DNA of 62,261 nucleotides, filler included. It is 6 parts of 6 records of this genome, joined end to end, with 100 filler letters (N's around TTAATTAATTAA, not from the genome) between each part and the next. Parts side by side here need not be neighbours in the genome. Positions count along the whole stretch, not along the records: positions 38,302 to 47,526 come from SRR2962707_2000; 5 more parts are not named here. One strand, written 5' to 3'. The notes below the pieces were generated by a model. The model searched no databases, was not told the origin of the DNA, and worked only from the letters and a program-made list of their open reading frames with translations. Positions 26,255 to 56,721 of the stretch are shown here, piece after piece (within the stretch, counting starts at the first letter, position 1; each line of letters opens with the position of its first letter). The translations under genes were made by a program, and so were the position numbers.

Positions 26255-26256
26255 GT

Positions 26257-29715: not shown

Positions 29716-29806
29716 CCAAATGGAAATAAATCCCCGCCGGAGGCACCAAACGCCCCTGCGGGACGCAGGGGCAAACATCATGTCGCGCGTCAGCGCGTCC
29801 TTTGGA

Positions 29807-31210: not shown

Positions 31211-31225
31211 GTATAAGTCCCTTGG

Positions 31226-33004: not shown

Positions 33005-33030
33005 GGGGAAACTCCGTCTGTTAAAGGGGG

Positions 33031-34017
33031 TTATAGCATTGAGGGCACGACCTGATCCGGTGGGCGGTGGCCGTCTTCGAATGTCTTGATGTTGATGATA
33101 ACTTTCTCGCCCATCTCGATCCGGCCTTCCAACGTGGCGGACCCCATGTGCGGCAGCAAGACAACGTTATCCAGCTCGCGCAGGCGCGGGTTAATGTCGG
33201 TGCCGTGCTCGTAAACATCCAGACCGGCACCTTGCAATTCGCCGGCCCGCAGCATCCGCGTCAGGGCGTTTTCATCGATTACTTCACCCCGCGAGGTGTT
33301 CACGATCACGGCATCCGGCTTCATCAGTTTCAGTCGACGCGCGTTCATCAAATGAAAGGTGCTGGGGGTATGCGGGCAGTTGATGCTAAGCACGTCCATC
33401 CGCGCGACCATCTGGTCTAGGCTTTCCCAATAGGTGGCGCCCAGTGCTTCCTCAACCTCGGGGCGCAAGCGGCGGCGGTTGTGGTAATGGACCTGCATGC
33501 CAAAGGCGGCCGCACGGCGTGCCACGGCCTGACCGATCCGGCCCATGCCAAGAATACCCAAACGGCGCCCGCTGACCCGACCGCCCAGCAATGCCGTGGG
33601 GGCCCAGCCTTTCCAGTCGCCAGATTGCATCTGTGCCATGCCTTCGGACATGCGGCGGGTCACGGCCAGAATAAGCGCCATGGTCATATCGGCAGTGTCA
33701 TCGGTCAAAACGCCCGGCGTGTTGGACACCAGAATCCCGCGCTGGCGGGCTGTCGTCACATCGATATGGTCAACACCCGCACCGTAATTCGCGATCAATT
33801 TCAGCTGATCGCCCGCCTGCCCCAGCAGGGCCGCGTCGATTTCATCCGTGACCGTTGGCACCAGAATATCGGCTGTTTTCATGGCCTCGCCCAGTTCGGC
33901 GCGTGTCATTGGCGTATCGTCTTCGCGCAATGTCACCTTGAAAAGTTCCGACAATCGCTTTTCAACGACCTCCGGCAACCGTCGCGTGACTACAACACTT
34001 AGCGGTTGCTTTGACAT
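33031..34017 (-). CDS. D-2-hydroxyacid dehydrogenase (glyoxylate reductase-like)
   Basis: GAGVDHID, GMGRIG, VNTSRG, LDVYE, LPHMGS motifs. Confidence 0.92.
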   Translation of the reverse strand: MSKQPLSVVVTRRLPEVVEKRLSELFKVTLREDDTPMTRAELGEAMKTADILVPTVTDEIDAALLGQAGDQLKLIANYGAGVDHIDVTTARQRGILVSNTPGVLTDDTADMTMALILAVTRRMSEGMAQMQSGDWKGWAPTALLGGRVSGRRLGILGMGRIGQAVARRAAAFGMQVHYHNRRRLRPEVEEALGATYWESLDQMVARMDVLSINCPHTPSTFHLMNARRLKLMKPDAVIVNTSRGEVIDENALTRMLRAGELQGAGLDVYEHGTDINPRLRELDNVVLLPHMGSATLEGRIEMGEKVIINIKTFEDGHRPPDQVVPSML

Positions 34018-34143
34018 TTTGAGCCTCCCAAATCTGGCTTTGCGCTTTGCTTGGTGGCATGGTGTCCCAAGCGGCGACGAGGCACAAGAACTTCGCGGCG
34101 TAAATGAGCACAAAATCAACCACCAAAGATCAAGCAGGCCGTC

Positions 34144-34653
34144 ATGACATCCAAGTTCCGTATCGCCCTATTGGGGGCGCTGGTATCGATTCCATTGGCT
34201 TTCAGCACCGCCCAGGCGGCAGAGGGGGTTGGTCAGGTCACCAATCTGCCTGTCCCCCGTTTTGTGTCGATGAAGGCCGCCGAGGGCAATGTGCGGCGCG
34301 GCCCGTCCCTGACCCACCGTATCGATTGGGTGTTCAAACACCGCGACATGCCCCTGCGCATTACGGCTGAACATGGCCACTGGCGCCGCGTTGAAGATCG
34401 CGATGGCATGGGCGGCTGGGTACATTATTCGCTGCTGTCCGGCACACGCACGGTGCTGATCGAGCAAGACAAAATGAAACTATTGACGCGCCCGGACCCG
34501 AACGCACCCGTTGCTGCCGAATTCGAAATCGGTGCCATTGCGCGACTGGGGCAATGCAGCCTTGAATGGTGTTTCCTGCGCGCAGACGGCTACAAAGGCT
34601 GGGCCCCCAAGGCACGTCTTTGGGGCGTTGGCACCCGCGAGATACGCGACTAG
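34144..34653 (+). CDS. Periplasmic tandem bacterial SH3-domain protein
   Basis: Signal peptide; LPVPRFVS, NVRRGP, WRRVEDRDG..GWV. Confidence 0.85.
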   Translation: MTSKFRIALLGALVSIPLAFSTAQAAEGVGQVTNLPVPRFVSMKAAEGNVRRGPSLTHRIDWVFKHRDMPLRITAEHGHWRRVEDRDGMGGWVHYSLLSGTRTVLIEQDKMKLLTRPDPNAPVAAEFEIGAIARLGQCSLEWCFLRADGYKGWAPKARLWGVGTREIRD

Positions 34654-34707
34654 GGTGATACAAAGCCCCATCGGCCCAACGACATTTGACAAGACAAGGA
34701 ACGACAC

Positions 34708-35697
34708 ATGCGCGCTATTACCTATTCCACATTGGGCGAAGCCCGCGATGTACTAAAGCTGGTGGAAATGGAAACGCCCGCCCCGGCCCAAGGCGAAGTC
34801 TTGGTGCGTTTGGCGATGTCCGGCGTGAACCCGTCTGATGTGAAATCGCGGCGCGGAAGACCCGGCATGACAAAGCCCCCCTTTGATCAGGTTATTCCAC
34901 ACAGCGACGGCGCGGGCGTGATCGAAGCGGTTGGGAGCGGCGTCGATGGCGCACGGATCGGCCAGCGCGTTTGGATTTGGAATGGCCAGTGGCAGCGCCC
35001 GTTTGGCACGGCAGCGACCCACATCACGCTCCCCTCGGCCCAAGCCGTCGATCTGGCCGATGACGTGTCGTTTGAGGCCGCCGCGAGTTTTGGCATCCCT
35101 GCCCTCACCGCCTGCCACGCAGTTTTTAACGGCGAAGATGTCAAAGGCCAGACGATCCTGATTCAAGGCGGCGCTGGCACAGTGGGCTATCTGGCCGTGC
35201 AACTGGCCAAATGGGCAGGCGCAAAGGTGATTGCGACAACCGGCAAAGACGGCGCGCGCCGCGCCCGAAAAGCTGGCGCAGATGTGGTGTTGGACTATGC
35301 CTCCCCGGACTTGTTAGAACAGGTGTTGGAGGCGAACGGCGGCAAGCCCGTCGATACCGTGATCGAGGTGGAATTCGGCGTGAACGTCGGGCTGGATGCC
35401 GAAGTGATCAAACCAAACGGCCGCATCGCAGCCTATGGATCGGCCAAGGAAATGACCCCGACCCTGCCGTTCTTACCGCTGCTTTTCAAAGCAGTCACAA
35501 TCGATATTATTCTGGTTTACCTTCTGACGGACGCCCAACGCCGGATCGCCATCGACAAGGTCCATCAGGCATTGACCGACGGCGCGTTGGATTGCCCCGT
35601 CGAGCAGATATTCCCGCTGGCCGAGACAATACGCGCCCACGATGCGGTCGAGGCGGGTGCGCGCAGTGGCGCAATCTTGGTTGATTGTTCAGAATAA
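34708..35697 (+). CDS. NADPH:quinone reductase (zeta-crystallin/MDR family)
   Basis: GVNPSD, PHSDGAG and GGAGTVG motifs. Confidence 0.9.
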   Translation: MRAITYSTLGEARDVLKLVEMETPAPAQGEVLVRLAMSGVNPSDVKSRRGRPGMTKPPFDQVIPHSDGAGVIEAVGSGVDGARIGQRVWIWNGQWQRPFGTAATHITLPSAQAVDLADDVSFEAAASFGIPALTACHAVFNGEDVKGQTILIQGGAGTVGYLAVQLAKWAGAKVIATTGKDGARRARKAGADVVLDYASPDLLEQVLEANGGKPVDTVIEVEFGVNVGLDAEVIKPNGRIAAYGSAKEMTPTLPFLPLLFKAVTIDIILVYLLTDAQRRIAIDKVHQALTDGALDCPVEQIFPLAETIRAHDAVEAGARSGAILVDCSE

Positions 35698-35833
35698 CAG
35701 TGCGGCGCAGGGCGGAATTTTCAAAAAATTCCGGACCGGTTTCTTTGTAAGAAATCGCACGCGATTGCAAAATTGCGTGCCACGGCACAGTCTAGGCCTG
35801 CGACCCTGTTTGTCCGGCATCAGGAGATGTACC

Positions 35834-37150
35834 ATGAGACTTCTTGCACTGATTTTCTGCCTGTTGCTGCCGCTGGGGGCGGCTGCCCAAAACACGACCA
35901 CCCAGCCCACAGGCACCATAACCATACAAGAAAGCGCCGCCGGCGACCGCGCCATTGCAAAGCGGATTCGCGATATCCTGGCTGAACTAGACGGGTATGC
36001 CAGTGTGGAGGTCGCCGTTTCAGCCGGCATCGTGACCCTGACCGGCACCACAGTCGACACCCAAAAGACCAAGCAACTTAACGATCTTGTCGGGCGTATC
36101 GAAGGGGTTGTCGCAATCGAAAACGAGGTGGCGGAAACCACCGATGTCGCAGACCGCCTGAACCCCGTTCTTGACCGGTTCAAGGCCCGCATCGCACAAG
36201 CCGTGGCGTTCCTGCCCCTTGCTGGCATTGCTTTGGCTGTTTTTGTCGGAATTGTTCTTTTGGGCTTTTTCATCGCAAGGTGGCAGCAGCCATGGAACAG
36301 AATTGCCCCGAACCTGTTCATCGCCGACATTTACCGACAGGTCATCCGAATGCTGTTTATCATCGCGGCTCTGGTGCTTGCCCTTGATATTGTCGGTGCG
36401 ACTGCGCTTTTGTCCGGCATTCTGGGTGCGGCAGGGATCGTCGGTCTGGCAATCGGTTTTGCCGTCCGTGACACCGTCGAAAATTTCATCGCATCCATCA
36501 TGCTATCGATTCGCCAACCCTTCCGGCCCAACGATACAATCGAGATCGAAGGCGACACCGGCAAGGTCATCCGCCTGACCAGCCGCGCGACGATTCTGCT
36601 CAGCTTTGATGGCAACCACATCCGAATCCCGAATGCGACCGTCTTCAAAAGCCGAATCGTTAATTTCACGCGCAACGCCGAGCGCCGTTTTTCCTTTGAA
36701 CTGGGTATGGCCCCCGATACCGATTTCGCCGCCGCGCGCACTCTCGCCCTTGAGACATTAGCCGCGTTGCCCTTTGTGCTGGATACGCCAGAACCCAGCG
36801 TTTGGATCGAAACCATCGGGGATAGCACGATTTCACTGCAACTTGCGGCATGGGTGGACCAAACCGATACCAGCATTGACCTTGCCCGCGGCGAAGCAAT
36901 TCGCCTAACAATAGCCGCGTTTGACCGCGCCGGCTTTGTCATGCCGGAACCAACCTACAGGCTGACACGCCCTGCCGAGGTGCCTAGCAAAGAGCCGCAG
37001 CCCCAAACTCCGGGAACGCCAGCAGCGCCCCCCTCGATGGCCCCGCAAGACGTCGATGCAAACGCAGAGAAAGCTTTGGAGCAGATCATTGATCAAGAAC
37101 GCGCCGGTACAGAGAGCGACTTGCTGACCGATCGAGCCGCTAACGAATAA
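35834..37150 (+). CDS. MscS mechanosensitive channel with N-terminal BON domain
   Basis: Signal peptide, BON-like VSAGIVTLTG, GLAIGFAVRD, PFRPND, IRIPN. Confidence 0.88.
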   Translation: MRLLALIFCLLLPLGAAAQNTTTQPTGTITIQESAAGDRAIAKRIRDILAELDGYASVEVAVSAGIVTLTGTTVDTQKTKQLNDLVGRIEGVVAIENEVAETTDVADRLNPVLDRFKARIAQAVAFLPLAGIALAVFVGIVLLGFFIARWQQPWNRIAPNLFIADIYRQVIRMLFIIAALVLALDIVGATALLSGILGAAGIVGLAIGFAVRDTVENFIASIMLSIRQPFRPNDTIEIEGDTGKVIRLTSRATILLSFDGNHIRIPNATVFKSRIVNFTRNAERRFSFELGMAPDTDFAAARTLALETLAALPFVLDTPEPSVWIETIGDSTISLQLAAWVDQTDTSIDLARGEAIRLTIAAFDRAGFVMPEPTYRLTRPAEVPSKEPQPQTPGTPAAPPSMAPQDVDANAEKALEQIIDQERAGTESDLLTDRAANE

Positions 37151-37189
37151 ATTTCACCCGAAACTCTGCATTTTTTCATCAATCAGGTC

Positions 37190-37218
37190 TTGCACCATCC
37201 TGAAACCCGGACTAAATA
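37190..37218 (+). promoter_or_regulatory. Sigma70 promoter of tRNA-Gln
   Basis: TTGCAC-17 nt-TAAATA just upstream of the tRNA. Confidence 0.6.
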
Positions 37219-37229
37219 ACGGCCAGTGA

Positions 37230-37304
37230 TGGGATGTGGCCTAGCGGTAGGGCACCTGTTTTTGGTACAGTAGATCGTAGGTTCGAATCCTACCATCCCA
37301 GCCA
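37230..37304 (+). tRNA. tRNA-Gln (anticodon TTG)
   Basis: Acceptor stem TGGGATG/CATCCCA plus GCCA; D arm GCC..GGC; anticodon loop TTTTGGT; T arm GTAGG-TTCGAAT-CCTAC. Confidence 0.93.
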
Positions 37305-37898
37305 CTACTCTTCTGAACATTGTTGCAAGCACCCGAGCCACCCGCTCTTGCTGTTTCTGCCCCAGTTTTCGCCCCAGCCGACCCCGCAACCTGTGCGGGT
37401 GCCACGGGTGACCCCTCCCAAGGTCTGGGAGAGGTCGTGGGCATAGCCACAGGCCTAGAGCAGAGCCCTCCAGTCTACCCCGTTGGCCCGTCTATCGCGA
37501 TCATCGTTCAGATTATCCCTCTTGTCCCCAATAGCTAGGTGGCGCGGATTAACGCAGCGGCGATTATGGCAAAGATGGCGGACGACCTGATCTCGATTGG
37601 TGGCTACTTGACGATGCGTAAGGTGTGTGCGATTAGAGTTTCGAAATCAGCGTCTAAATGTGGCGCTATTGACGTCGAGCCGAATGGCAGACCTCAATTT
37701 ACTGGCAAACAAGGGCCAGACGCATCCGTCATTTATTTGACCAGATACATCCAAATCAACTGATTATCTCGCGCGCGAGTACAATTCGTATGCGCTTACC
37801 CACGGTTAGCTATGGCTCAAATGTTGAGTCTGTTCACAATGGTTTTCAGCGATGAGGTGATCAAAATAATCAATTTTTGAAGAACTAGGACGATATTT

Positions 37899-38201
37899 AT
37901 GTTGCACCAAGAATCTAAACCTGTGGCCACCAAACTATCGCGCAAAGGTGACGCAGTCGCTATCGCCCCGAAAAGCGAAAACAACTATGATGAAGAAGAT
38001 AAGGCGAAGCTCGCTCGCTATATTGCCCAGCGCTTTGTTCGCCGGGATAATAAATTTTACCAGATTGCAAATTCTGGTACCGCTATTTCGGCTTCCGACG
38101 TAAAACGCGTGAGCTTGCACCAAGTCAAGGCGGCCTTCCCAGAAGTCGAAATCACCGACGAACTTTGGTCTGCAGTTTGCCAACACGCCATCAACGATAC
38201 C
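37899..38201 (+). CDS. Hypothetical protein (3'-truncated), probable island gene
   Basis: AGGA RBS; open to the contig end; lower GC than the upstream genes. Confidence 0.55.
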
Positions 38202-38301
38202 NNNNNNNNNNNNNNNNNNNNNNNNNNNNNNNNNNNNNNNNNNNNTTAATTAATTAANNNNNNNNNNNNNNNNNNNNNNNNNNNNNNNNNNNNNNNNNNN
38301 N
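38202..38301. other. Artificial contig linker
   Basis: N44-TTAATTAATTAA-N44. Confidence 0.98.
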
Positions 38302-38651
38302 TGAGTGAGTCCTCGTGAGTGTGAGTGAGTGGCGGTTGATTGGTCAGTCTGTTCATCGGTTTGTCCGTCGCCCCTTGGCCGCACCACCTTCAGCATTGAG
38401 TGGTGCTCGGGTATTTTGGTAAGGTTGGAACGCACTCGAGGGAACGCAGGGGGGTGGTGCGAGTGAAATGGCTAGCTCTTGTTGGACTTTTACTGGTGCG
38501 TTGGTGCACGCTCATGACACGAGTACCTTACCAACAGCCGGATAGAAACACCAATATCCCTTCGTTGCGGAAAACGGTCGCCAGCGTCCTGGAAGGGAGT
38601 GCGCTGTGGTCAAACAAGCGACAGCAACGGCACCAATATCGATACCGAAAA

Positions 38652-38722
38652 CGTTGCTGTTTCTTTTGTTGTTCTTTTTGTTGTTGTTGTTGCTCTGTTG
38701 CTGTTGTCGTGGCTGCTTGCTT
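38652..38722. repeat. Imperfect (GTT)n microsatellite
   Basis: ttgttgttctttttgttgttgttgttgctctgttgctgttgtc; TGAG repeats also occur at 38302-38330. Confidence 0.8.
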
Positions 38723-38828
38723 TTGATGATCCCCTTTTATTGTGGTTGGCAGTTGCACGTGTTGTGGTTGTCTTCGACTCAGTGGTGGGAGTGGAAACGC
38801 AGTGTAGCAGCGCGCGGCGCCAGTTGTG

Positions 38829-41800
38829 ATGAACAATATCGTGCTGTACTCCGACCAGGGCGCCGACCAGGGCGGCGGTAGTGGCAGTGGCAGGGGCAGT
38901 AGAACCCAGCTGTCGTTGACGAAGACTCAACTTGCCAATGACGGCGGCCGCGGATCTGAGCTGGTGCCGCGCGGCCAACGGTCGGTGGTATCCTCTTCAC
39001 TTGCCCTCCTTCCATCTACGCGTGCGGGATACACTGCCGATCGCCCCTCGGTGTCCAGTGAACTCGACACTCTGGACTCCGAAAAATTAGCACGCTGGGT
39101 GAAGATGCAGGACCCGCGTCTCGCACCAGCTGCAACGGACTTGGTGCGGTCGGGCATCACTGGTGCAATTATCACGCAGGAGCTTGGATGCGGGCCACAA
39201 CACTTTCAACGTTTTCTGCAGCACGATTTAGGAATCAAGCGTCAGTTCTGCGGCGCATTACACCAGCTACTGACGGGAAACGACACCGTCTCCAAGGTCA
39301 CGGCCAGGATTTGCGATGGGGACTACGGTCAATTCCTCGAACGCAGCAGGCTGCTGCCCCCTGGGCGTGAGCTTGACAAACTCGCAGACGCGCGCCGCTT
39401 CGTGAACTTTTGCGCCGCGACCGTCAGTGCCGGTGACAGCGATGTAGCAAACGCCGCCCACGCCAAAGCGATCGGCCTTGCAGAACAAGGAAAAGCACTT
39501 TTCCAACTTCAGCGATTTGCGGAAGCTGCGAGTGCGTTTCGTGCCGCCAGTGATATCGCCTTGACACAGAAAGGCAAAGATGTTTTCGACCGCCAAGCCC
39601 AAGACGCAAGCAAGCGTGCGCGTCAAAAGCTGCTGGATCTGTACAAAGAATTTTGCGCGACAGACTTGTCGGATTTTGCCGAACTCATGAGGCGAGCAGC
39701 GCTGGACGAGGGCCACGTCAACAGTCTGTCGACCGACGAAAGCGTCTACCTGCTGATGCAGATCGTGACTGGCGGAGCGGAGTGCGCCGATCGTCTGCAG
39801 TGCAGAGCCAGACTGAACGCGCGCCAACGGCGCCCGGGGAAGTTCTTCTTCCTGCTGGGGGATACAGGGCTTGGCAAAAGTACGTGTCTCAACTACGCCA
39901 ATGGGTGCAACTACAAGAAAAACGGTGAAAGCGAGCTGAGGCCCCTCGGCACGGAGATTACCGCCGTTGGCAACCACGGCGAATCTAAAACCTTCTTTGC
40001 CAAACCCTTCGAGATCGGCGATCACTTGTTCATTGACTGCCCGGGTTACGGAGACACCAAAGGCCCGGTAATTGCCATCGGGAACTCCGTCAACGTCCGC
40101 AATGTGCTCAACGCGTGCATTGCCGCGGACTGGAGCATCTTGTGCTTCTTGCGCACAGCGCACGTGGAGGCCGATTCCAGGGCGAAGACTTTTGAGCGGA
40201 TTTACGAAGACACAAAGCGGCTGTTCTGCAACAACCAGGCCTTTGTCCAGCAATCCGGGAGAATTGTGTGCGTCTTCAACGGTGAACCGGCCAACCGAAA
40301 AGGCGAGTTTTTGGAGAACTTCACAACCATGGCCACCAATTTCATGACCAATAGAGGCACCGATTCAGACACCACCCAGGCTTGGCTCCGCATTGTGCTA
40401 AAGCAACACGTCTTCGTCGACTGCACCCGGGCGGGCGGTGGACGTAACTTTATCTCCCAGTTGGAAAAGGCCGCGTCGCGTGGCGTCGACTCACGCGGTG
40501 GCGTTGCTAATCCTATCACAGCGGCTTCCCCCTTCCAAGTGCAACTGCAGGACGCGGCACGCCTTCGGCTTAGCCGTATTTGTCGTGACGCTAGCGACAA
40601 TATTGAAAAACTGATTCACTCTCACACCAGCGAGTCACTGAGCCTCGTACATCGCAATTGGGCTGTGGTGAAGAGCCTGGTTGACATCGTAGATGACGAT
40701 ATAGAATTACAACAGTCGTTCAAGCTGAAATTGCCCCAAGCTCTGGTGAACTTTGCCCGACACGCGTTCCCTCTGCAGCAGCTGCTGCGCGAACCGACAT
40801 ACAGCTATGAGAAGATGCTGTCAGTGCAGAACACTCTGCGCAGCTTCGATGCGTTTGCGCGCACCTACCCCAACGTTCACCAGCTGACTGAGATGTACGA
40901 GGACGAGGCCAAACAGGCCGCTGAGAGCATCTGGGACGTCTTCCAACGCGCGTTGACGTTTGAGGCGCCAATGCCGGTTGACGCCACTGATGCAATCGAC
41001 CACATTTTGAGCGTGTCCCAACCGTCCGAAGTTCTTTGTGTGGCGGTGTCGGCGTCGCGGAAGGAAATTTTATTTGCGTTTCACGCACTGTGCAAACTCG
41101 TGCACCCTGACAAGAACTCGGGTGTAACCGCAAAACAAGCATTTCAAAAGCTCGCACAAGCAAGACAGCAGCTGCTACACACGGGCGGGAACGCAGTCGA
41201 CGTGGAGACTCACGGGTGCTCAATGGAAAGTGTTTGCAAGCTGCTCCAGCAACTGTCCGTGACTGCTAACATTGTTCATCGTGTCCGCGCTGTGATCGAT
41301 GCACCAGCCGACGCTGCCCCCCCCGCCGTGAAAAGGGCCTGCGCGTTAGCCTTGAAGCATATTAGCAACGGCACGTGGCTGCTGCAATACGCGCAGCTGG
41401 TTAAAGTTCCAACACTGCTGGAGCAGCGGTTCAAGACGGTGACCAGTGCCTTGGACGGCCTGTTTGCCCAAATTGCGCGCACACAATTGGAGGCTGCGCG
41501 TGATGCGGTGCTCTCGGCCGCGGACAGCGTCTTCCAATCGTTGAGCGACAAATGGCCAGCCCAACTCCAACAACACGTGTCAGAGCTCCAACAAAAGCTC
41601 TCAAAACCTACACTGGGCCCGTTGAAGCAAACGCTGGAAAAGATTGCTCGCATCACCGGCCGACACGAGGTGCAGCACATTGCAACCAAAGTGAAGGAGT
41701 TCTACCAAGTTGGCCTGATGGTCCGAAAGGTTGTCGACCTCTGCGAGACGGAATCGAAGCGCAGCGACCTACTCGGTCAGTGCAGCCGAAAGACTGGTCT

Positions 41801-44800
41801 TGACCTGGCTGACATCAACAATCAACTCCGAACCGTGTGCCTCCGCGCCAGCACGGCTGCGAACGAAGAAACCACCATTGCCAGGCTCGACGCTCTGTTT
41901 GACAAGGTGGCGCTGCAAGCCGCGAAGTGGAGTGCCTTTCCCGCCGCACAGCGGGACCTCGCTGGCCTGCGCCAAAGCGCAGACACAATTTGCGGGCACG
42001 CAGAGCAGTATTCCGCCGGCGCTGGCTCGATGGACAAGATCCGCAAACACGTTGTGCTCTTGATGAAACGTGTGGACAGCTGGCGTCCACTGTTCGTCGG
42101 CCGCCTCGAGAAGCAGCTCGACCATCACCTCAAAAATGGCGATGTGGACAGTGCACGTGTCGCGGCGGAACAGCTGGCAATGGCTGGCGATGCATGGCCG
42201 GAGCTTGTAGAAGAATTGCGGGAGAGATTTACGACAGAATTTGCGACCTGTAGAAAAGAAGTGAATGATTGCGTGATCGCCATTTCCAAAATCGACAACA
42301 TTCACGAGGAAACGGCCGCCTACGACGACAGATTCCGGCACTTGCCTCAGTTCTTCGTGACTGCCCATGTTCACTTTGAACTCAGCGGTGATTCGAGGCC
42401 GTCTGAAAAATTTCAGGAGCAGGTGGCCTGGGTGCAGTCTTTGCTTGAAGTGGCATGTCGCGAATTGGAAAGCTACCCTGCAGCAGACGACCGCGTGGTG
42501 CCGCAGCTCGTCGCAATCTACGCCTGTGCCGAGATTGCTGACCAACCGGACTTGCATTCGGCAGTGACCAAGGCGATCAAAGCTTGGTTGAACGCGTTCC
42601 AAGATCCGTTGAGCATCAGCCAGATTGGCAAGACGCTCCTGAGTTGCGAACGCACAGTGCAGTATGTCTCGCAGCTTCTCAACGCGTTTCCCAAGTTCAA
42701 ACGCATTCAGGTTAAACTTCACAAGCAGTATGCCAGCGTTGGAGCCCAAGATTACTACGCTGCTCTGTTGGGTGCCAACCCCGCTGCCGAACCACATATC
42801 CGCCACATGAAGGCGATATTTGATGACTTCGAGAAGCGTCATGACGGTGCGTGTGGTTGTGATGACCGTGTGTGGTGCTTGTTCGCATACGCATTCTGCG
42901 TGCGTGGCCTGATGAAAGGCGCGAGCGAGCGAAGGTGCTAGTGCGGTTGCGGGCGCAAGGCATGTTCTCACGGCTGTGCTTTCCTGGTGTGCCAACCTCA
43001 GACCTTCTGGGGGAAATTGTTTCAGTTGTCCATCAAGAGGGTGACTCGCAGGCTCTGCGGCAGTCCATCATCGACCGAGCAACCGGCGCCGCCGCTCAGT
43101 ACCTGAACGATGGGCGGGGCGACGGTCACCTAGCTGAGCTCCTCACAATGGTGTGCGGTGGCCGGTCCTTCGTCGACGCTTGCTCGCCAGGCTCCGGGTT
43201 TTTGACAGACAGGACTTTCCTTTTCGAGTGCCACCCAATGCAAGTCTTTGCGATGCTCAGCTTTTTCGTGTGCCAAACGCACCTGCCCGGAACAACTCCT
43301 GGCGGTGCCACTACGGCAGCGGAGATCCCCCAAGAGTTCCTATTCCGCTCCGTTGGGACAGGAGAAGGCAAATCTATTGTGATCGCTGGCATCGGTATCA
43401 TGTGCACGCTGATGGGTCTTCAAGTGGACGTGGCATGCTTTAGCAAAATCCTCGCCGCCCGTGACGAAAACAACTCCCAAGCGTGGTGTGACATGTTTAG
43501 TGCGAAGCTGAAATACGGCACCATCGACGGTCTCATCACCGTCGCGCCGGAGTACCAAGCGCAGGCAGCGGCGCGTGCGCGCCAAGTGTTGGAAGGGAAG
43601 AAGCTTCAACCGCTTCACACCAGCGGGGGCACCAATGCCGCACCGAAACCACGTGTGCTCATTGTCGACGAAGTCGACGTGCTGTTCAGCGAGAACATGG
43701 TTTCCAAGGTCTGGGACTTTGCGTCGATGCACAAGGACGAAAATTTTGCCAAACTTTACTTGGACATTTGGGATCGGCGATGTAACAGCTTGAAGGAGGC
43801 CCTGGCGTCCCCCCACGCTGCAGCTGTGCAGGCCACATTCCCGCACTTGAAGCTCGACAGGGTGATTGCACCTACTTTTCCTGCCGCGGACGAGGTTCGA
43901 GCAGGTCGATACGTTTACAAGGTTGGGGAAGACCAGCACGGCAGGCCGTGCATCATGCGCCGCAGCGCGATCGATGGGAGGCTCGAAACCTATGCTGAAC
44001 CCGTTGACTATTTTGCGGCCCTCAAAGAAAGCCGAATCCCGACAGAGGCGGCTCTGCAGCAAATCTCCATCCTGACGCCCTTTGCCTCAAAGCACGCACT
44101 CTCATTAACTCGCAACTATGGCGCTGTGTGGGGGCTAAGTGGAACCTTGGCTTCAACCTTCTTTGACAGTTTGCGCGATGTGTTTTTCCCGGACCCTCGC
44201 AGCCAGCCCCAAACAATGGTGCTCCCGACGTCATTTCATACTTCCCACAAGTTGACGGTTGATGACCCCATCGTTTGCGGCCCTGACAGTGAGGACAAAG
44301 CCCAGGCATTCGACCCAACACACCCCGAGAACTCAGGCTTCTTTCTGAACATCAAGAAGGAAATCGAAGCCAAAGTGCAAGACTCTCGCGCGGTGTTAGT
44401 GGTGTTCGACACGCTGGCGCAACTTAGTGAGTTTCGTGCGTGGTTACAAGCCCGACCCATTGCGGGAACTCAGACGGCACGTTCTATCAAAGTCCTGCCC
44501 CCGGAACGGGCAACCGACAATTTTTCGGTGATCGACAAGACCATTCGAGTCGCGGCCTCGAGGTGTCGTGTAACTCTCGCCACTCGCGCGTTCGGCCGTG
44601 GCTCCGACTTTGTGTGCACGGACGCGCTTCTCAAAAGCCAAGGCGGCATGCACGTAATTCAAGCATTCTGGACGCCCAGCGAGGCCGAGGAAGTGCAGAT
44701 CAAGGGGCGCACCTGCCGTCAAGACAACCCTGGAAGTTACCGACAAATTCTGCTGGCAGACAAAAATCGCGACAACGCTGCAGCTCTTACAGACTTGCCC

Positions 44801-45767
44801 TACCTGCTGGATGTATTTGGTGACCCGAGCGCCGTCAAGAGCGAGGAGGCTGTTCGGACAGCACGCAAAGCATACTATGCGCGCCGACGAGATGCAATTG
44901 TGAAGGATGTAGCGGAAGCAGCGCAACGAGAGACAAAGTGCGCGACTTTTTTGCGGAATCTGCACGAAGCCACCGACATTGACAGCATAATCGGGTACAT
45001 CAACTCACCACACGTGCAAGCCGCCGCTACAGCGGTAATCATCGTATGCGACGTGTCCGGCAGCATGGGCGGAAGGAACATCGACGAAGCTTGCTCAGGG
45101 TGCGCTCAACTGCTTGACGCGCTGCAACAGCGCAACTGCTTGGCCGACACCGTAACGGTCTTCACATTCAACCACGAGTGTTCCGTGCTCATCGAAACAG
45201 CGCCCGTTAGCAGTGTGGACACTCACTATATCCAGCAACAGCTTCATGCTCGCGTCTCCGGCGGCACGGTATGTCATATGTCGTCGCATTTTCTCCAAGC
45301 GAGTTGCCTGTCTGCTTTGCGATGCTTCGGGGAACCCAAAGGACTGTCGCTGATCATCTGCTTCTTTCTTGCATGCACGTCTGCTCCATGGTTCCGCTTT
45401 ACGCACCTCTTCTTGCTGGGTCACTCTTCAACCGCAGGCGCTGTTCGACGCAATTGGGGAAACTGTTAAAAGCTGTTCTGTGACGGCCGACCCCACGGTC
45501 GCGGTCGAGATGCTTTTCCTCACTGACGGCGAAGAAGGTAGTTCTCGCCACTACAATCAGCAAGCAGTGCGACAGGCCTTGGCATCCCCGCCCAATCGCA
45601 ACCTGCACATCACAATGGTCAGCGTTGGCTCCAGCCGTGGCAAGCAGACGCTGGAGGCACTAGCGGCGGGCTTAGACCATGTGACAGTCGTTGGGCATGA
45701 AGGGGCTGCTGGAAACATCGAAAAGGCCTTCACATCTTTTGCGTCGTCCCGCATTGCCGCTCAATGA
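38829..45767 (+). CDS. Spliced eukaryotic gene of about 2204 aa (exons 38829-42846, 43002-45268, 45438-45767): SAM-TPR-GTPase-J-domain-SecA-like ATPase-vWA
   Basis: Both splices keep the frame (phases 1 and 0). Motifs: GDTGLGKS and DCPG; HPDKN; GTGEGKS, DEVD, ATRAFGRGSDF and QIKGRTCRQDNPG; DVSGS, GGT|ALFDAIG and LTDG. Confidence 0.8.
42847..43001 (+). other. Spliceosomal intron 1 (155 nt, phase 1)
   Basis: Donor ACG|GTGCGT, branch-like CTCAC at 42967-42971, acceptor CTCAG|; removal gives KRHD-D-LLGEIV in frame. Confidence 0.75.
45269..45437 (+). other. Spliceosomal intron 2 (169 nt, phase 0)
   Basis: Donor ACG|GTATGT, pyrimidine-rich body, acceptor CGCAG|; removal rebuilds the vWA motif GGTALFDAIG. 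Confidence 0.88.
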
Positions 45768-46988
45768 CGGCACCCGACCTTCAAACGTGCGTCGCCGTGG
45801 CTATGCAGGGAATCACGGAGATTACCAAGCTCGGTCGGTGTGCTTGTGGGACCGTGGAGTGACGCGCAGAAACACGTTGAAAATCCGTGGGCGGCGGGTG
45901 GCTGTTTTTTTCCTTTCTCCAATCCAAGCGCAGCCTGCATCTCGATCCCCAACGTTGGGAGAAGGATGTTCAAATTTCATAATGCAATTTTGCTATCTTC
46001 ATATTAGTTTCAGTAAAAAATTGTTGATGATGAATTGTCACACCCTTCGGGTTACTGCACTCTATCGGGCCACCCCTACGAGCTGGTAATAACCAAAAAT
46101 CGCCAGTGGGTACGAACCATTTCTGGCTCCTTGGTTGATTGTTTGAGTCTCAAGCACCTCTTGAGTCTTCTAAAATGATCGCTTGCCGGAACGATCGACA
46201 GGGAGTCTAGAGAGTTTAATTTCGAGCAGTCTGTGAACGAGAAAATCCCGGGTAGGATGGCTGGAGTTGAAGGAGCATGTGAGCCCCCGGGCGTCGGCTC
46301 AGGATCCGACGATGGGTCTCATGGCCATGCGCGATGAAATGAGCGAGATGCGGGTGGAGAACAGGCAACTCCGCCAGCAAGTTGCAGCTATCAGTCCCGA
46401 GCGTAGACAGCCAGCCGACGACCCGCGTGTCCCTGTCGCTGTTTCACCTCCTGGGGGTCGGTGTCGTGACCACAGTGGCGGTGGTGCTTCGGACGACGCA
46501 GACTCGGGTAGTTCGGCGTCCTTTGACGTGTCACGCGCTCTGCGGGTCAGTACGGATGGATCTGTGGCAAGGCTTTGGCACATGATCATTTTTGATGGAC
46601 GCTGGTTGCAGCTCCATTGGTGCAGCAGGGCACTAAACGTTTGTGCAATTACATGTCAAGAGCGTCACTGCAGTAAAATGTTTTTGTGCGTGCGGAAAAG
46701 CACAATGAATTTCATGCAGTGGTGCATTGAGTAAGCTTCAAGTGATGGGCTGCTCCAGCACCATTCCCAGCAGCCTGGGCCGAAGTCAGTGTGAAAATGC
46801 CGGAACAGCTAATTTTATGAGCACACACAGTCCCTAAACGAGCTTCAAGATTTAAAAGCAATTATCATCACTTTTACCAAGGGAAGTCATCAACCTGATC
46901 AAGTCTAGTGCTCTGGTCCGTGTTGCTTGTAGGTGAACTGCAATAATCGAGCCTCGTTCTGCCTTCGGGGCCAAAATTCATTTCTAGC

Positions 46989-47525
46989 TCATAAAAAATT
47001 GTTTTCAGGGACAACACGTAAGCAAAACACACATTCATAGGAAAAAAAAATGCATTCAAACGAAATTTGGTGCTCTGATCCGATATTTTTTAGGTGCCGT
47101 TGCCGCAAATTAACCTCCATCCGCCATTTCGGGGAATTAGGTTTGAACAAATCGAATACATGTTCTGGATTGTTGTTCGGATGGCAGTACCAAAACAACC
47201 GGGCACTGGTTGCACAGCCAATGCACACGTTTCGACCACAACAGAAAGTTGTCTGTCCTTTTCCTGACGCTGGAAAGGAATGTTTATTGATCCAGGGAGC
47301 CTCAAGAGCGCGTGAATCACCAATTCGATCGAAATCAGTCCAACTTTTCTAAATTGAGCGTTTTTCGTGTGTCGAGGAAGGGATGGGCAAATAACTGCAA
47401 TTGCCTCCTTGCACAGTTAAGATCGGCTTGTTGAAGAATTCCTTATTAAAGCCAAGGGCGTTCAGTTGTTCGACAACATCAAAATCATATTTGGCCTTGA
47501 ATTCGTCCACATTCCGCGCAAGCAC
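46989..47525 (-). pseudogene. Possible degraded ORF with one in-frame TAG
   Basis: About 179 codons open from the contig end, except for TAG at 47349-47351; no family recognised. Confidence 0.3.
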
Positions 47526-47526
47526 A

Positions 47527-47626
47527 NNNNNNNNNNNNNNNNNNNNNNNNNNNNNNNNNNNNNNNNNNNNTTAATTAATTAANNNNNNNNNNNNNNNNNN
47601 NNNNNNNNNNNNNNNNNNNNNNNNNN
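47527..47626. other. Artificial contig linker
   Basis: N44-TTAATTAATTAA-N44. Confidence 0.98.
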
Positions 47627-47800
47627 CATGGCTTCAATCTTGTTTTTGGCAAGATCATTCTTGTGCATGAGCTGCGCTCGCTCACGGTTCCAGTCGTCCT
47701 GCAGCTCGCGCAGCATCGCGTTGTCACGTTCCAGTTTGCGACAGTGTTCGATCAATCTGTCGAGTTTGTCCGCCAGTGCCTGTAGTTCGGACTGTTCCAT
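47627..47800 (-). CDS. TIGR02449/ZapB-like coiled-coil protein (3'-truncated)
   Basis: LQALADKLDRLIEHC..WNRERAQLMHKNDLAKNKIEAM; this family is usually divergent from ygfB-pepP. Confidence 0.82.
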
Positions 47801-47902
47801 GAGTCGTCCAACGCCTGTATCAAAGAAGTGAACTAACTATAAGTGTGGACTGCAAGTTGGTCAATTTACAGGGATGTCATGGCCCGCGTTGCGTGATGTC
47901 CG

Positions 47903-49177
47903 TCACTCTGGGGCCACGTGTCCCAGCCCCTGTTTTCGGCTGCCCCGCCAGGCCTGGAGCGCCGGAATCAGTCCCACCAGCAACGCTGCCAGAGGGACGC
48001 TGGCGATGATCGACCATTCCGTTGCATTCAGCGGCCGCAGGCCTACCTGAACGCCCCACGTATCCAGTAGCCAGGGGCTAAGAGCCGCGATGCCGGCCGC
48101 TCCGGCCAGTATCGCGAGCCCACAGGCCGCGATGGCCAGCAGAATGCATTCGATCACGTGCAATGCCGCGATGAGGGCCGGCGAAGCCCCGGTAGCCCTG
48201 AGAATCGCCACTTCCTGCCGCCGCTGCGCCTGCAGAGTCAGCAACACGGCCACGAGCCCGACTAGGCTGGTGACCACGACAAAGCCGGTGATGCCCAGCA
48301 AGGCTTTTTCGAACTGACCCATGATTCGCCAGAGTTCGCTGAGCGCCACCCCCGGGAGAATCGCCGACAACGGTTCGAGCTGCGATTCGTTGATCTGGCG
48401 CTGAACCTGAAAAGTCAGCACCTTGCGGTCGATGCCCACGAATGCGGCGGTAATCGCGTCCGGTGTGAGGTCCCTCTGCCTGGCCTGTTCGGGCGTGACG
48501 GTTCGCCCGGGGATGGCAACACCGGATTCCCAGCCAATATGGATGGCTTCGAGGCCCTCCAGGCTGACGTAAACTGCCTGGTCCACCGGTGTACCAGTGG
48601 GAGCGAGGATGCCAGTGACCGTAAACGGAGTGTCCTTGTGGTTGGAGAAGCTGGTCTTGCCGCCGCCATGGGACAGGACAACCCTGTCGCCAGTCTGGTG
48701 AGCGTGCTTGCGGGCTACTTCGGCCCCCAACACCACGTCGAAGACATCGGCGAACCATTCTCCCTCGGCCAATGCGGGTTTCTGGTCCCGACCGTAGCGG
48801 AAATGTTCCGGGAACTGCTCGCTGGTGCCGACAACCCGGTGCCCGCGATAACTGTCGCCCAGGGATATGGGCACCAGCCAGCCGATGCGCTCATCCTCCT
48901 GGAGTTTCTCGTAGGTACTCCAGCGGATGTTATTGGTGGCGTCACCGATGTGAAAGACCGTGTACAGCAGCAGGTTCAGCTGACCGCTGCGAGCGCCCAC
49001 GATCAGGTCGGTGCCGGAGATGGTGCTGGTAAAGGACTGCTTCACTTCGGTGCGAAGGTACTGAACGCCCAGAAGCAGGGTGATGCTGAGGGTCAGGGTC
49101 AGGGTTACCAGCGCCAGTACCCTGCGCCGATACCAGAGGCTTGCCATGGCCAGAGACAGTGCCAGCCGCAGGTTCAT
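47903..49177 (-). CDS. ABC transporter permease (FtsX/MacB-like; ZrgC-like)
   Basis: TDLIVGARSGQLNLLLY, PISLGDSYRG, RRQEVAILRATGA motifs. Confidence 0.85.
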   Translation of the reverse strand: MNLRLALSLAMASLWYRRRVLALVTLTLTLSITLLLGVQYLRTEVKQSFTSTISGTDLIVGARSGQLNLLLYTVFHIGDATNNIRWSTYEKLQEDERIGWLVPISLGDSYRGHRVVGTSEQFPEHFRYGRDQKPALAEGEWFADVFDVVLGAEVARKHAHQTGDRVVLSHGGGKTSFSNHKDTPFTVTGILAPTGTPVDQAVYVSLEGLEAIHIGWESGVAIPGRTVTPEQARQRDLTPDAITAAFVGIDRKVLTFQVQRQINESQLEPLSAILPGVALSELWRIMGQFEKALLGITGFVVVTSLVGLVAVLLTLQAQRRQEVAILRATGASPALIAALHVIECILLAIAACGLAILAGAAGIAALSPWLLDTWGVQVGLRPLNATEWSIIASVPLAALLVGLIPALQAWRGSRKQGLGHVAPE

Positions 49178-49914
49178 GGGGTCACCTCCAGGGCCAGTTG
49201 GTGGTTAAAGCGTTGGGCCAGGCTCTTGTCGTGACTGACAAAGACAACGGATGAGTGTTTTTCCGCCGCCAGCCCCAGCAACAACTCGATAAAGCGGTCC
49301 CGGTTGTCGCTGTCCAGGGCCGAGGTGGGCTCGTCGGCGAGGATCAGTTCCGGGGCGCCGGTCAGTGCCCGGGCGGCGGCTACTCGCTGTTGTTGCCCGA
49401 CGCTGAGGGTGGTAACACGCCGGTGCCAATGGCTCTGGGGGATGCCCAGGGCAGTCAGCAGGGATTTCGCTTCTGCCTCCGGCGAAGACAAGGCCCGCGC
49501 TCGGCGTTTCCGTGAAAGCTTGCAGGGCAGTGTGACGTTGTCCAGCGTGCTCAGGTAGGGCACCAAGTTGAACTGCTGGAAGATAACGCCCATGTGGTCG
49601 GCCCTGAATCGGTCGCGTTGGCCGCTGGTCAGGCCTGCCAGGTCTGTGCCCAGTAATTCCAGGCGACCGGAGTCCGGCACGATCAGGCCTCCCATCAGGC
49701 TCAGGAGTGTGCTCTTGCCGCTACCGCTGGGGCCTCGGAGGAAAAGGTGTTCACCGCTGTTCAGTGTTGCGTCAGGATAGCGGATGCCCGGCTGGGTCCG
49801 GTCCCAGCGAAAAGTGAGTTCGCTGATGCGGAGGGTTTGCCGTGGGGTTACGGAACTCTCTGAGGTTACGGAACTATCTTTGTGCAAGTCTGTCTTGCCG
49901 GTCATGTCAGGCAT
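49174..49914 (-). CDS. ABC transporter ATP-binding protein (ZrgB-like)
   Basis: GPSGSGKS, LSVGQQQR, ADEPT, VSHD motifs. Confidence 0.92.
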   Translation of the reverse strand: MPDMTGKTDLHKDSSVTSESSVTPRQTLRISELTFRWDRTQPGIRYPDATLNSGEHLFLRGPSGSGKSTLLSLMGGLIVPDSGRLELLGTDLAGLTSGQRDRFRADHMGVIFQQFNLVPYLSTLDNVTLPCKLSRKRRARALSSPEAEAKSLLTALGIPQSHWHRRVTTLSVGQQQRVAAARALTGAPELILADEPTSALDSDNRDRFIELLLGLAAEKHSSVVFVSHDKSLAQRFNHQLALEVTP

Positions 49915-49963
49915 TGGTCATCCGGTGTATGATCCCTGAATCGTTACAGGAGACGTCAGTTTT

Positions 49964-50506
49964 ATGTCAGAACCTCTGGAATCCCGATCGCGGCAACGCT
50001 CTCTGTTCGCCACCCTGTGTATGGTGGCGCTGGTCGCGGCCTTCAGTCTTTCAACCGCCGTTAGCGCCAAAGACGCCTCGCAAGAGATCGACTGGCTGGA
50101 ATTGATGCCAGAGGAGGATCTCAACCTACTCGAGAATATGCCAGAAGTCTCCCACGAGGGTGACGGCCCTGCCACATTGCCGGACGAGATCATGACAGGT
50201 CGCGTGGTGCCTGAAATGGATGGCCGGTCGGGCCGGATTCCGGGTTTCGTCGTGCCGCTGAAAACCACACAGGATATGCGCATTCTGGAGTTTTTCCTGG
50301 TGCCATACTATGGCGCCTGCATACACGTGCCGCCACCTCCTCCCAACCAGATCATCCATGTGAAGTACAAGAAGGGCTTCAAGCTGGAAGCACTCTACGA
50401 TCCGGTGTGGATTGAGGGCACCCTGAAGATCGAGAAGACCGAGAACGACATTGCTTCGTCCTCATACTCCATCGTGGCGGAGAACGTCTCACCCTACGAG
50501 GAGTAA
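49964..50506 (+). CDS. DUF3299 family protein (ZrgD-like)
   Basis: IDWLELMP, RIPGFVVPL and EFFLVPYYGACIHVPPPPPNQII motifs. Confidence 0.88.
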   Translation: MSEPLESRSRQRSLFATLCMVALVAAFSLSTAVSAKDASQEIDWLELMPEEDLNLLENMPEVSHEGDGPATLPDEIMTGRVVPEMDGRSGRIPGFVVPLKTTQDMRILEFFLVPYYGACIHVPPPPPNQIIHVKYKKGFKLEALYDPVWIEGTLKIEKTENDIASSSYSIVAENVSPYEE

Positions 50507-50529
50507 TGTCTTTGCAGGGCATTCATAGG

Positions 50530-51168
50530 TCAGTTGTTGACCGTAAATGCCCGGTTTGAGGGTGTCAGCCGGGCACTGCCCTGGCCAGAGGGGCTGACCC
50601 ATTCGACGGTGAGTTCCTCCATACCCTCGAACCTCTCCATCAGTGCCGATGTGAACTCCTGATCGGCGTCGATGCGGTTGCATGCCAGTTGCTGGGATAC
50701 GTCGTATTCCCGATGAGTGGCTTCCCCATGATGTTCTTCGTCATGATGTCCTTCGTCGTGATGTTCGGCCTCGTGATGATCGTGCTCGTCGTGGCCGTGA
50801 TGAGTCTCCCCACCATGGTTTTCGTCTTCCCCGCCGAGTTCCACGGCTGCGGCTGTCACGCGGCAGTCGGCCGCTGCGGTGTTGACCAGCGGCGTGGTTT
50901 CCAGCCAGCGGGTAATGTCCGCCAACCGGCTTTTTTCCGCCTCTGTGCGGGCGCCATGCTCGAACCCGGCGAGGTTGTACGCAGGGGAATTGAGCATCAG
51001 GTCAATACGGTTTTCTTCCACCGCCATCTGCAATCGGGCATGGCCGTGCTCGTGGGCGCCGGGATTGTCGGCGGCCAGCGCCATCGGTGCCAGGCTGCAG
51101 GCGGCGATCATGCATCCAAGTGTATGCAGCGAGCATGGACGGTTGGGGTGTGTGTGTTTGGCGGACAT
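50530..51168 (-). CDS. DUF2796 His-rich periplasmic zinc-binding protein (ZrgA-like)
   Basis: Signal peptide, AHEHG, SPAYNLAGFEH, His/Glu/Asp-rich loop. Confidence 0.88.
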   Translation of the reverse strand: MSAKHTHPNRPCSLHTLGCMIAACSLAPMALAADNPGAHEHGHARLQMAVEENRIDLMLNSPAYNLAGFEHGARTEAEKSRLADITRWLETTPLVNTAAADCRVTAAAVELGGEDENHGGETHHGHDEHDHHEAEHHDEGHHDEEHHGEATHREYDVSQQLACNRIDADQEFTSALMERFEGMEELTVEWVSPSGQGSARLTPSNRAFTVNN

Positions 51169-51190
51169 GGCAGGCGCTCTCCTTGAAATT

Positions 51191-51213
51191 GATATGTTAT
51201 AACATAATTTACT
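51191..51213. promoter_or_regulatory. Zur box
   Basis: GATATGTTATAACATAATTTACT contains the perfect palindrome ATGTTATAACAT and resembles GAAATGTTATA-N-TATAACATTTC; lies 22 nt upstream of the zrgA-like start. Confidence 0.8.
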
Positions 51214-51307
51214 CTTTCCCGGTCCGGAATCAAGAGGGCAAGTGTCTTAAATGCGCCTGAATGCTAGGATAGGGCCTTCACTCATTCATACAGGACCGTC
51301 CCGTTTC

Positions 51308-51904: not shown

Positions 51905-51931
51905 ACAACGCTGATACCCGTGGGAGACTTC

Positions 51932-53254: not shown

Positions 53255-53256
53255 CC

Positions 53257-56720: not shown

Positions 56721-56721
56721 G

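Follow-up and report, generated by a model that had tools for sequence, protein, structure and literature searches.

The window analyzed here, a stretch of DNA of 62,261 nucleotides (nt), consists of six contigs joined by five identical 100-nt artificial spacers (N44-TTAATTAATTAA-N44, at 5187-5286, 20137-20236, 29616-29715, 38202-38301 and 47527-47626). We describe a gene on the plus strand at 38829-45767, which encodes a giant protein with a GTPase-like domain, a J domain, a SecA-like motor and a von Willebrand factor A (vWA) domain. The gene is alone on its contig, a stand-alone eukaryote-type contig of 9225 bp (38302-47526, GC content 0.55) that opens after the spacer at 38202-38301, and the other five segments are bacterial. 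Because the six contigs are separated by spacers, adjacency across them is meaningless and the bacterial neighbor genes supply no genomic context. Three plus-strand open reading frames (ORFs) of 1371 amino acids (aa; 38826-42941), 865 aa (42872-45469) and 132 aa (45369-45767) cover the gene. The initial annotation had joined them in frame across two GT-AG introns into a 6615-nt coding sequence, and our analysis confirmed this structure: the exons 38829-42846, 43002-45268 and 45438-45767 yield 6615 nt and 2204 aa, with zero internal stops. Exon 1 begins at the first in-frame ATG after an upstream stop and encodes aa 1-1339 and the first base of codon 1340. Intron 1 (42847-43001, 155 nt, phase 1) starts with GTGCGT and continues through a polypyrimidine tract to a CAG end (CCTCAG). 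Exon 2 encodes aa 1340-2095 and is followed by intron 2 (45269-45437, 169 nt, phase 0, GTATGT to CCGCAG), which divides the vWA domain. The second half of this domain (ALFDAIGE..., with the LTDG motif of the metal ion-dependent adhesion site, MIDAS) is encoded by exon 3, with the stop codon at 45765-45767.

Relatives of the protein were retrieved through its motor (exon 2) alone; 163 were stored and 24 were scanned with Pfam. When a family profile from 24 uninterrupted homologues was compared with the spliced protein, profile positions 158-1927 matched aa 300-2133 in a single domain (525 bits, E 2e-161). The posterior probabilities were high and there were zero gaps at either junction (EKRHD/DLLGEIVS against ekeYdkiieeiis at intron 1, and GGT/ALFDAIGE against Gge.gnEaveig at intron 2, with the slash at the junction). 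The closest relative, P0005 (789 aa, 52% identical), aligns to residues 2-757 of the exon-2 query; its similarity begins at the first residue after the intron-1 acceptor and stops at the residue after the intron-2 donor. The similarity of P0005 and that of another relative, P0021, both end directly after ...GGGT followed by V, a GTN codon. This shared break is expected if an intron is conserved at that place and a prokaryotic gene caller was used. The protein-database entry P0004 is the same ORF as the first of the three ORFs and is a fragment from prokaryotic gene calling; P0005 and P0021 look like the same kind of fragment. In word-based searches with the first ORF, the near length range contained no match other than that ORF, and the shorter range contained none.

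Three sequencing runs were examined for the gene. Run X1 is probably the source DNA: it contains 0.96 of the sampled words of the contig, and it keeps both introns. Run X2 is from another study with the same organism code, and its status as RNA was guessed by the tool. An X2 contig (record 14, 982 nt, depth 42.4) covers 44947-45267 and 45437-45987 and omits exactly 169 nt with GT..AG ends. This contig ends at 45987, and we annotate 45768-45987 as the probable 3' untranslated region, with the reservation that a poly(A) site cannot be mapped from the end of a contig. The other X2 cover of the gene consists of short pieces of low depth (3-4) that match its unique parts exactly, a pattern that fits a transcript of low expression better than DNA. 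Run X3 contained nothing for the gene. The locus is thus a spliced, intact, intron-containing eukaryotic gene in a bacterial assembly, of the size of about 2200 aa that had been predicted. It is eukaryotic and not bacterial on three grounds: the contig is set off by spacers, splicing is needed to make the vWA domain whole, and X2 contains a spliced form. We give almost no credence to the alternative of three separate bacterial ORFs or a frameshifted bacterial pseudogene. The bacterial nature of the other segments and an ATG at 42962, after the stop of the first ORF, could be cited for it; yet the spacers part this contig from the bacterial ones, both interruptions are GT-AG with pyrimidine tracts, one of them is spliced out in X2, and the family alignment, as well as the vWA domain, becomes whole only once both are removed.

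The read depth in X1 is not uniform along the contig. It increases from 23.7 to 66.8 at 44947 and reaches 72-108 farther 3', such that the stretch 44947-47526 is covered about three times as deeply as the remaining gene (66.8-107.8 versus 23.7). A second X1 contig (record 7, 2102 nt, matching 44947-47048) has nine differences from the window and other sequence before 44947. It shares with the spliced X2 contig the upstream sequence, or loose 5' end, before 44947 and the variants at 45127, 45210 and 45599. The vWA-coding end and its 3' flank therefore exist elsewhere in about two additional copies, of which at least one is transcribed and spliced. In light of the three shared variants and the loose 5' end, the spliced X2 contig stems from a near-identical partial copy, perhaps a truncated duplicate or a vWA gene in its own right. 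The same observations raise the possibility that the join of the SecA-like and vWA parts at 44947 is an assembly chimera from a multi-copy element and that the true gene ends differently. The jump in depth, the other sequence upstream of 44947 in the second locus and the breaking of the X1 contigs at this position are all in line with a chimera. We nonetheless consider it highly improbable. X1 record 6 (44857-44976, 0 differences) enters the shared stretch by 30 nt at single-copy depth (25), an overlap that is one letter below the 31-letter bridging rule of the tool. In addition, P0005 and the family consensus proceed from motor directly into vWA within one ORF, and the profile alignment is unbroken to aa 2133. 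The join is therefore supported by record 6 and by the motor-to-vWA continuity in P0005 and across the family.

The first of the catalytic modules is a TRAFAC-type P-loop GTPase-like domain (39801-40448), with a G1 motif (GDTGLGKS, 39858), a switch-I SKT and a G3 motif (DCPG, 40035). An alignment of the protein with ten relatives revealed invariant GxxGxGKST, switch-I S-x-T and D-x-P-G motifs; the G4 motif (NKxD/AKxD) is absent from it, the corresponding segment being LIGVTxxP in the relatives and VCVFNGEP in our protein. A profile of the domain had septin-3 (4.5e-7), septin-9, Cdc10, IRGb10 and GIMAP4 among its best matches in the PDB, together with generic P-loop matches to midasin. A structural model of moderate quality matched the folds of Nog1, GIMAP7/2/5, Toc34, FeoB, Era and GBP at about 1e-5. 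The domain hence has the conserved G1, switch-I threonine and G3 of the septin, AIG1 (GIMAP, Toc) and IRG branches of the TRAFAC GTPases, and differs from them in the lack of NKxD or AKxD, in the modest E-values and in Pfam scores below the cut-offs of the GTPase models. The earlier assignment as a GTPase is borne out by the G1, G2 and G3 motifs and by the septin/GIMAP-like profile and fold matches, with the proviso that G4 is absent.

The GTPase-like domain is followed by a J domain at 41028-41183 (aa 734-785), with its HPD motif at 41103-41111 (aa 759). The previously reported coordinates of this motif, as well as those of G1 and DCPG, were correct. The Pfam DnaJ model matched aa 734-782 with 33.1 bits, above its cut-off of 27.8 (E 6e-8), and J domains in the PDB matched the protein, that of DNAJB9 at 2e-4; the J-domain call stands on these matches and on the HPD motif. 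Between the J domain and intron 1 is the linker of the family core (41184-42846, aa 786-1339), which is homologous to the family profile only and has no Pfam family match. A J domain was found by phmmer in none of the 163 stored relatives. By this comparison, the J domain appears to be an insertion in the linker, peculiar to this member among the relatives examined.

SecA is the bacterial and plastid secretion motor, the ATPase of preprotein translocation. The SecA-like motor of our protein (43298-45019) is built from a first nucleotide-binding domain (NBD1, with DEVD and, at 43358, the Walker A GTGEGKS), an insert where SecA has its PPXD, a second such domain (NBD2; FGRGSD, GRTCRQDNPG) and a long scaffold-like helix. 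The single-sequence Pfam score is weak (SecA_DEAD, 1.3e-3). A profile of exon 2 and 23 relatives matched SecA in the PDB at 5e-20, over SecA residues 96-614. We modeled the motor with AlphaFold2 (predicted local distance difference test, pLDDT, 77.6; predicted template-modeling score 0.73). In a Foldseek search with this model every row listed to rank 35 was SecA or SecA2 (E 8e-20 to 4e-11), with helicases coming after them at 1e-7. VIA-align superimposed residues 1-673 of the model on SecA 32-733 (6itc_A) with Z 26.9 and 514 residues aligned, compared to 368-375 residues for an isolated DEAD motor and 319 (Z 19) for DEAD-box proteins. About 145 more residues thus align to full-length SecA than to the bare motor. 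The SecA-type motifs TGEGKS, DEVD, SGT, FGRGSD and GRTCRQDNPG are intact. The assignment of a SecA-like ATPase is upheld by profile, Foldseek and VIA-align alike, and SecA is the best match of the module in both sequence profile and structure. The module resembles SecA and SecA2 in its two-lobed DEAD-type motor, its motifs, the PPXD-position insert (about 110 aa, exon-2 residues 245-355) and the long helix after NBD2. It differs from them in its location near the C-terminus of a soluble 2204-aa eukaryotic protein, with no SecY context, and in that Pfam detects neither SecA_PP_bind nor a wing domain. In the AlphaFold2 model there is one long helix only after NBD2, followed by the vWA domain, and the helical scaffold, wing and C-terminal set of SecA is not seen. 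Outside the NBD1 core, no membrane-span-like segment is present in the 2204-aa protein, which is predicted to be soluble.

We also considered that the SecA-like module acts on nucleic acid in the manner of other superfamily 2 (SF2) ATPases, as an RNA- or DNA-directed remodeler or sensor. The structural matches that come next after SecA are DinG, LGP2/MDA5 and DEAD-box helicases, and Pfam found Helicase_C in four and DEAD in three of the 24 relatives. Weighed against this are the lead of SecA over the helicases (7 Z units, and a Foldseek E-value lower by about 12 orders of magnitude), the SecA type of the motifs (TGEGKS, DEVD, GRxxRQxxPG) and a Pfam search that found no nucleic-acid-binding accessory domain. 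These make an action on nucleic acid very unlikely.

The vWA domain starts in exon 2, the first half (45026-45268) carrying the MIDAS motifs DVSGS and GGT. This half alone matched Pfam VWA_2 at 1.4e-4 with 22.9 bits, below the cut-off of 27 because the domain is split by intron 2. The family profile matched vWA domains in the PDB at 1e-6. Splicing brings the end of exon 2 (...HARVSGGT) to the start of exon 3 (ALFDAIGETV...), so that the MIDAS threonine regains its usual GGT-helix arrangement and the MIDAS set is complete (DVSGS at 2023, GGT at 2092 and LTDG at 2123). The C-terminal vWA domain is accordingly as the initial annotation had it. All of the NTPase, HPD and MIDAS motifs are intact in the 2204-aa protein.

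The N-terminal 300 aa or so are private to this protein among the relatives examined (0/163 by phmmer), and an atlas search with aa 60-320 gave no usable match. The SAM-like domain proposed for aa 81-150 found no backing: no Pfam family matched aa 60-170 at E<=10, and there was no match in the atlas or in the PDB. A TPR-like element had been proposed as well, and one repeat is discernible at 39474-39551 (aa 216-241; TPR_2, E 0.003-0.024). It reaches 15-18 bits, under the Pfam cut-off of 27, and the TPR of LGN matched at E 0.7; the call survives as a single sub-threshold repeat. Four of the six proposed domains (GTPase, J, SecA-like and vWA) are thus supported by the profile searches. We hold the gene structure and the domain identities, taken together, with high confidence.

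At E<=1e-3 the exon-2 query matched 1735 cluster representatives; tightening the threshold to 1e-10 left 777 of them, and to 1e-30 left 48. The majority of these relatives are proteins of 1000-3800 aa, with the match near their C-terminus. The Pfam scan identified SecA_DEAD in 24 of 24, P-loop_SecA in 14 and MMR_HSR1 in three, the vWA models in one or two each, a TKL-type kinase, Sel1 and Ank in one each, and DnaJ in none. The GTPase region of our protein matched 52 of the 163 stored relatives by phmmer, and 46 of them carry a strict P-loop motif ahead of the SecA Walker A. The distance between the two P-loops is 1115 aa in our protein (344 to 1459) and 1149-1164 aa in its closest relatives. 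The two linker pieces searched by phmmer matched none of the 163 relatives, and the linker is recognized by the profile only. Of 69 proteins, 33 have a vWA part behind the motor; this share may be biased, as the profile came from shorter, vWA-rich members. In the atlas, the motor was nearest to eukaryotic "hypothetical protein" clusters with SecA_DEAD (labeled Rotifera, Arthropoda and Chordata), one of which has VWA_4 in 18% of its members; these placements are leads and not alignments. From these comparisons, aa 300-2133 are assigned to a large and functionally unstudied family of giant proteins. The core of the family opens with a septin/GIMAP-like P-loop GTPase and closes with a two-lobed ATPase derived from SecA; the linker between them spaces the two P-loops by about 1100-1150 residues. 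The core is often followed by a vWA/MIDAS domain, and the ends of the members are variable. The protein of the window is hence not a one-off: it is a widespread, uncharacterized GTPase-SecA-like architecture to which a private N-terminus and a J-domain insertion have been added.

Scanning the prokaryotes, with each species represented by one genome, yielded 112 pattern matches and 20 relatives. Thirteen are family-like loci, in metagenome-assembled genomes (MAGs) labeled Gammaproteobacteria, Pseudomonadota/Proteobacteria, Legionellales, Chlamydiae and Actinomycetota and on a short contig of a Wolbachia assembly. The other seven are weak matches to records of Lentilactobacillus and other Lactobacillaceae, and are taken to be SecA2. 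Best-segment identity of the bacterial loci to our protein is 24-42%. The bacterial genes are single uninterrupted giant ORFs, some of them on long contigs. They include a 3025-aa member in a Legionellales MAG (Ank, then MMR_HSR1/AIG1, then SecA_DEAD; on a 151-kb contig, adjoining gyrA), a 2340-aa member in a Chlamydiae MAG and a 2375-aa member in a Gammaproteobacteria MAG (L014, 3.8-Mb contig). These giants of intracellular bacteria, 2300-3000 aa in length and some with Ank repeats or vWA, share with our protein an MMR_HSR1/AIG1-type GTPase upstream of SecA_DEAD and P-loop_SecA. They are unlike it in their uninterrupted ORFs, in the level of identity and, as in all of the relatives examined, in having no J domain. 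In an exploratory tree of the motor, the family is set apart from SecA2, including that of Lentilactobacillus, by a long branch, and our protein and P0005 share a separate long branch. The named bacterial loci fall in various parts of this tree, in which most tips are unlabeled and supports are not displayed, and we therefore claim neither a donor nor a direction of transfer. A scan of JGI metagenomes with exon 2 gave 64 pattern matches and one distant locus (L023), which was not used. A viral origin of the gene was also entertained and is without support, since an IMG/VR scan returned 145 pattern matches and no relatives and a BFVD fold search returned generic helicases only.

Several observations at the bacterial loci deserve mention in their own right. 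The Gammaproteobacteria member is directly followed by a second giant ORF of >2595 aa without a Pfam match (L014:2535-17458). Upstream of the Chlamydiae member there is an ORF with a weak, sub-cut-off match to SidM_N (L006:1472-2830, E 1.8e-4), a model that matched one of the 24 relatives as well. The member in the assembly of Wolbachia, an insect endosymbiont, is on a 7.3-kb contig (L007), which could be host or other contaminant DNA instead of Wolbachia.

The literature touches on parts of this architecture. In PMC3482391, GIMAP-type GTPase and SecA-like helicase-related domains are listed separately among the effector modules of the amoeba symbiont Amoebophilus, under "other regulatory modules". 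A table of eukaryote-like proteins in PMC4256840 has the L. fallonii protein lfa2470 as "[SecA DEAD-like]". Both were compared to our protein by description and not by sequence. PMC8195603 and bioRxiv 10.1101/2023.11.21.568195 mention SecA-like domains in giant bacterial proteins of another architecture, namely secreted toxins and membrane giants. Literature searches on SecA-like proteins with GTPase or vWA domains and on SecA-like giants found no account of the eukaryotic family or of its function; the supplementary domain tables of PMC3482391, PMC4256840 and PMC8195603 may list the architecture. The initial annotation had not recognized the architecture as characterized. This stands insofar as we found no functional study; the core, often with vWA, nevertheless recurs in hundreds of giant proteins, those of bacteria included.

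The explanation that we favor, with moderate confidence, is an intact nuclear gene of a eukaryote, on a contig swept into a mainly bacterial assembly, encoding a protein that combines capture, motor and Hsp70 functions. The capture, motor and Hsp70 scheme as such is tentative. The confidence in the favored explanation and the likelihoods attached to its alternatives apply to entire statements, identity claims included, and are not additive with those given for the scheme alone or for the gene structure with its domain identities. Removal of the two spliceosomal introns leads to a soluble 2204-aa protein. In the scheme, its GTPase would be a nucleotide-gated switch of assembly or localization, which may control assembly or membrane association as in septin, GIMAP and IRG proteins. 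The MIDAS site would hold a client or partner protein by one of its acidic residues, the SecA-like motor would grip and move a polypeptide segment with ATP and without SecY, and the J domain would recruit Hsp70 to take over or hold the client. ATP-driven polypeptide work is the simplest reading, given that all catalytic motifs are kept and that there is more of SecA than a bare helicase core. Two NTPases about 1100-1150 aa apart, with exchangeable ends, is the layout of a regulated machine or switch. Analogous in design are midasin/Rea1 and the MoxR-vWA pairs, in which a mechanochemical NTPase is combined with a MIDAS-type vWA that holds the client, and sacsin, a giant scaffold with a J domain. 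In contrast to these, the motor here is a SecA-like SF2 ATPase and not an AAA+ or Hsp90-like one, and no sequence relationship was found beyond the generic P-loop matches to midasin.

A number of points weigh against this explanation. Reads bear on the two junctions unequally: intron 2 is skipped exactly in X2, but intron 1 is without RNA cover there. The spliced X2 contig has the variants and 5' end of the higher-copy partial locus and not those of the full-length gene, and the standing of X2 as RNA is the guess of the tool. The N-terminal 300 aa are without a relative in word, atlas and phmmer searches, for which reason the start codon is a putative one. The GTPase model is moderate (pLDDT 64), and without NKxD the domain may bind ATP or be non-selective. 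SecA_PP_bind and the wing domain went undetected by Pfam in the 24 relatives as in our protein, and a polypeptide clamp is therefore hypothetical. The motor, as an SF2-type ATPase, could act on nucleic acid or serve merely as a switch. No PADLOC defense model was matched, with 0 families for both exons, and the single PADLOC match, in the Legionellales homologue, falls in the ankyrin region. Every step of the mechanism, and the biological role, is inferred, as are the capture-and-threading machine and the immune role suggested in the initial annotation.

One of the main alternatives places the protein in cell-autonomous immunity, as a sensor or switch that is gated by nucleotides and follows STAND/NLR-like logic. 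In it, the NTPases would control conformation and oligomerization with nothing being threaded, and the variable ends (Ank, Sel1, TPR, kinase, vWA and J) would be sensor and output modules. A constant core flanked by variable N- and C-terminal modules has the appearance of such a device, the GTPase is similar to proteins of the septin, IRG and GIMAP kinds, some of them with roles in immunity, and the family also occurs in intracellular bacteria; the separate listing of GIMAP-type GTPase and SecA-like domains among regulatory modules in PMC3482391 is in the same direction. However, Pfam found no death-fold, TIR or nuclease output domain in our protein, PADLOC gave no match, the approximately 145 extra SecA-aligned residues (514 versus 368-375) suggest mechanical work, and a J domain suits a link to chaperones better than signaling. 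We view this sensor or switch as credible, if somewhat unlikely.

Under the favored capture and motor explanation, the variable ends and the sharing of the family with obligate and facultative intracellular bacteria suggest a role at the host-symbiont or host-pathogen interface, in conflict between host and symbiont. In its most far-reaching form, a motor derived from SecA would work on polypeptides in the eukaryotic cytosol independently of SecY, with a septin/GIMAP-like GTPase as its gate; the family would have been exchanged between eukaryotes and intracellular bacteria, which deploy it in or against host cells, and the motor would cooperate with Hsp70 on a client captured by the MIDAS. This far-reaching form is unlikely; if true, it would constitute a new class of protein-remodeling machine in host-symbiont conflict or proteostasis. 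A close structural copy of the secretion motor SecA resides within a soluble eukaryotic giant protein, with relatives in hundreds or more across eukaryotes and intracellular bacteria. The J-domain insertion is a hint that the motor handles polypeptides with Hsp70, and biochemical work on the entire family could start from it. We regard the family as worth studying, and the member in the window offers a handle on its function. There is also a practical warning for mixed bacterial and eukaryotic assemblies, in which a prokaryotic gene caller cuts such genes into pieces.

The remainder of the window is bacterial. The segments 5287-20136 and 47627-62261 have 97-98% identity to G001, the nearest genome (4.6 Mb, bacterial), at three unlinked places. 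The gene-bearing contig has no DNA match in G001, and a relative of the giant protein is absent from that genome. The segments 20237-29615 and 29716-38201 are also without a DNA match in G001 and contain ordinary bacterial genes, among them two gamma-glutamyltranspeptidases, a histidine kinase, YidC with a periplasmic domain, a GlcD-like oxidase and MscS. The segment 1-5186 (GC content 0.40) codes for a TonB-dependent receptor and BacA. The assembly seems to be a mixture of at least three bacteria and the giant-gene contig, that is, a mixed bin. The neighboring genes (gamma-glutamyltranspeptidase, YidC, histidine kinase and others) had been considered as context for the giant gene and were discarded given the spacers.

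Within the last contig, at 59966-59978, the G001 match leaps from position 585483 to 3576599, which is a rearrangement relative to G001 or a misjoin. On the gene-bearing contig there is a GTGA-type microsatellite at the very start (38302-38331) and a GGC/AGC repeat, coding for Gly/Ser, near the start codon (38871-38904). The X1 and X2 contigs break or mis-anchor at both of these; a search for repeats inside the contig (38302-47526) found none. The sole tRNA or Rfam match in the whole window is a tRNA-Gln (TTG) at 37230-37304, on the neighboring bacterial contig.

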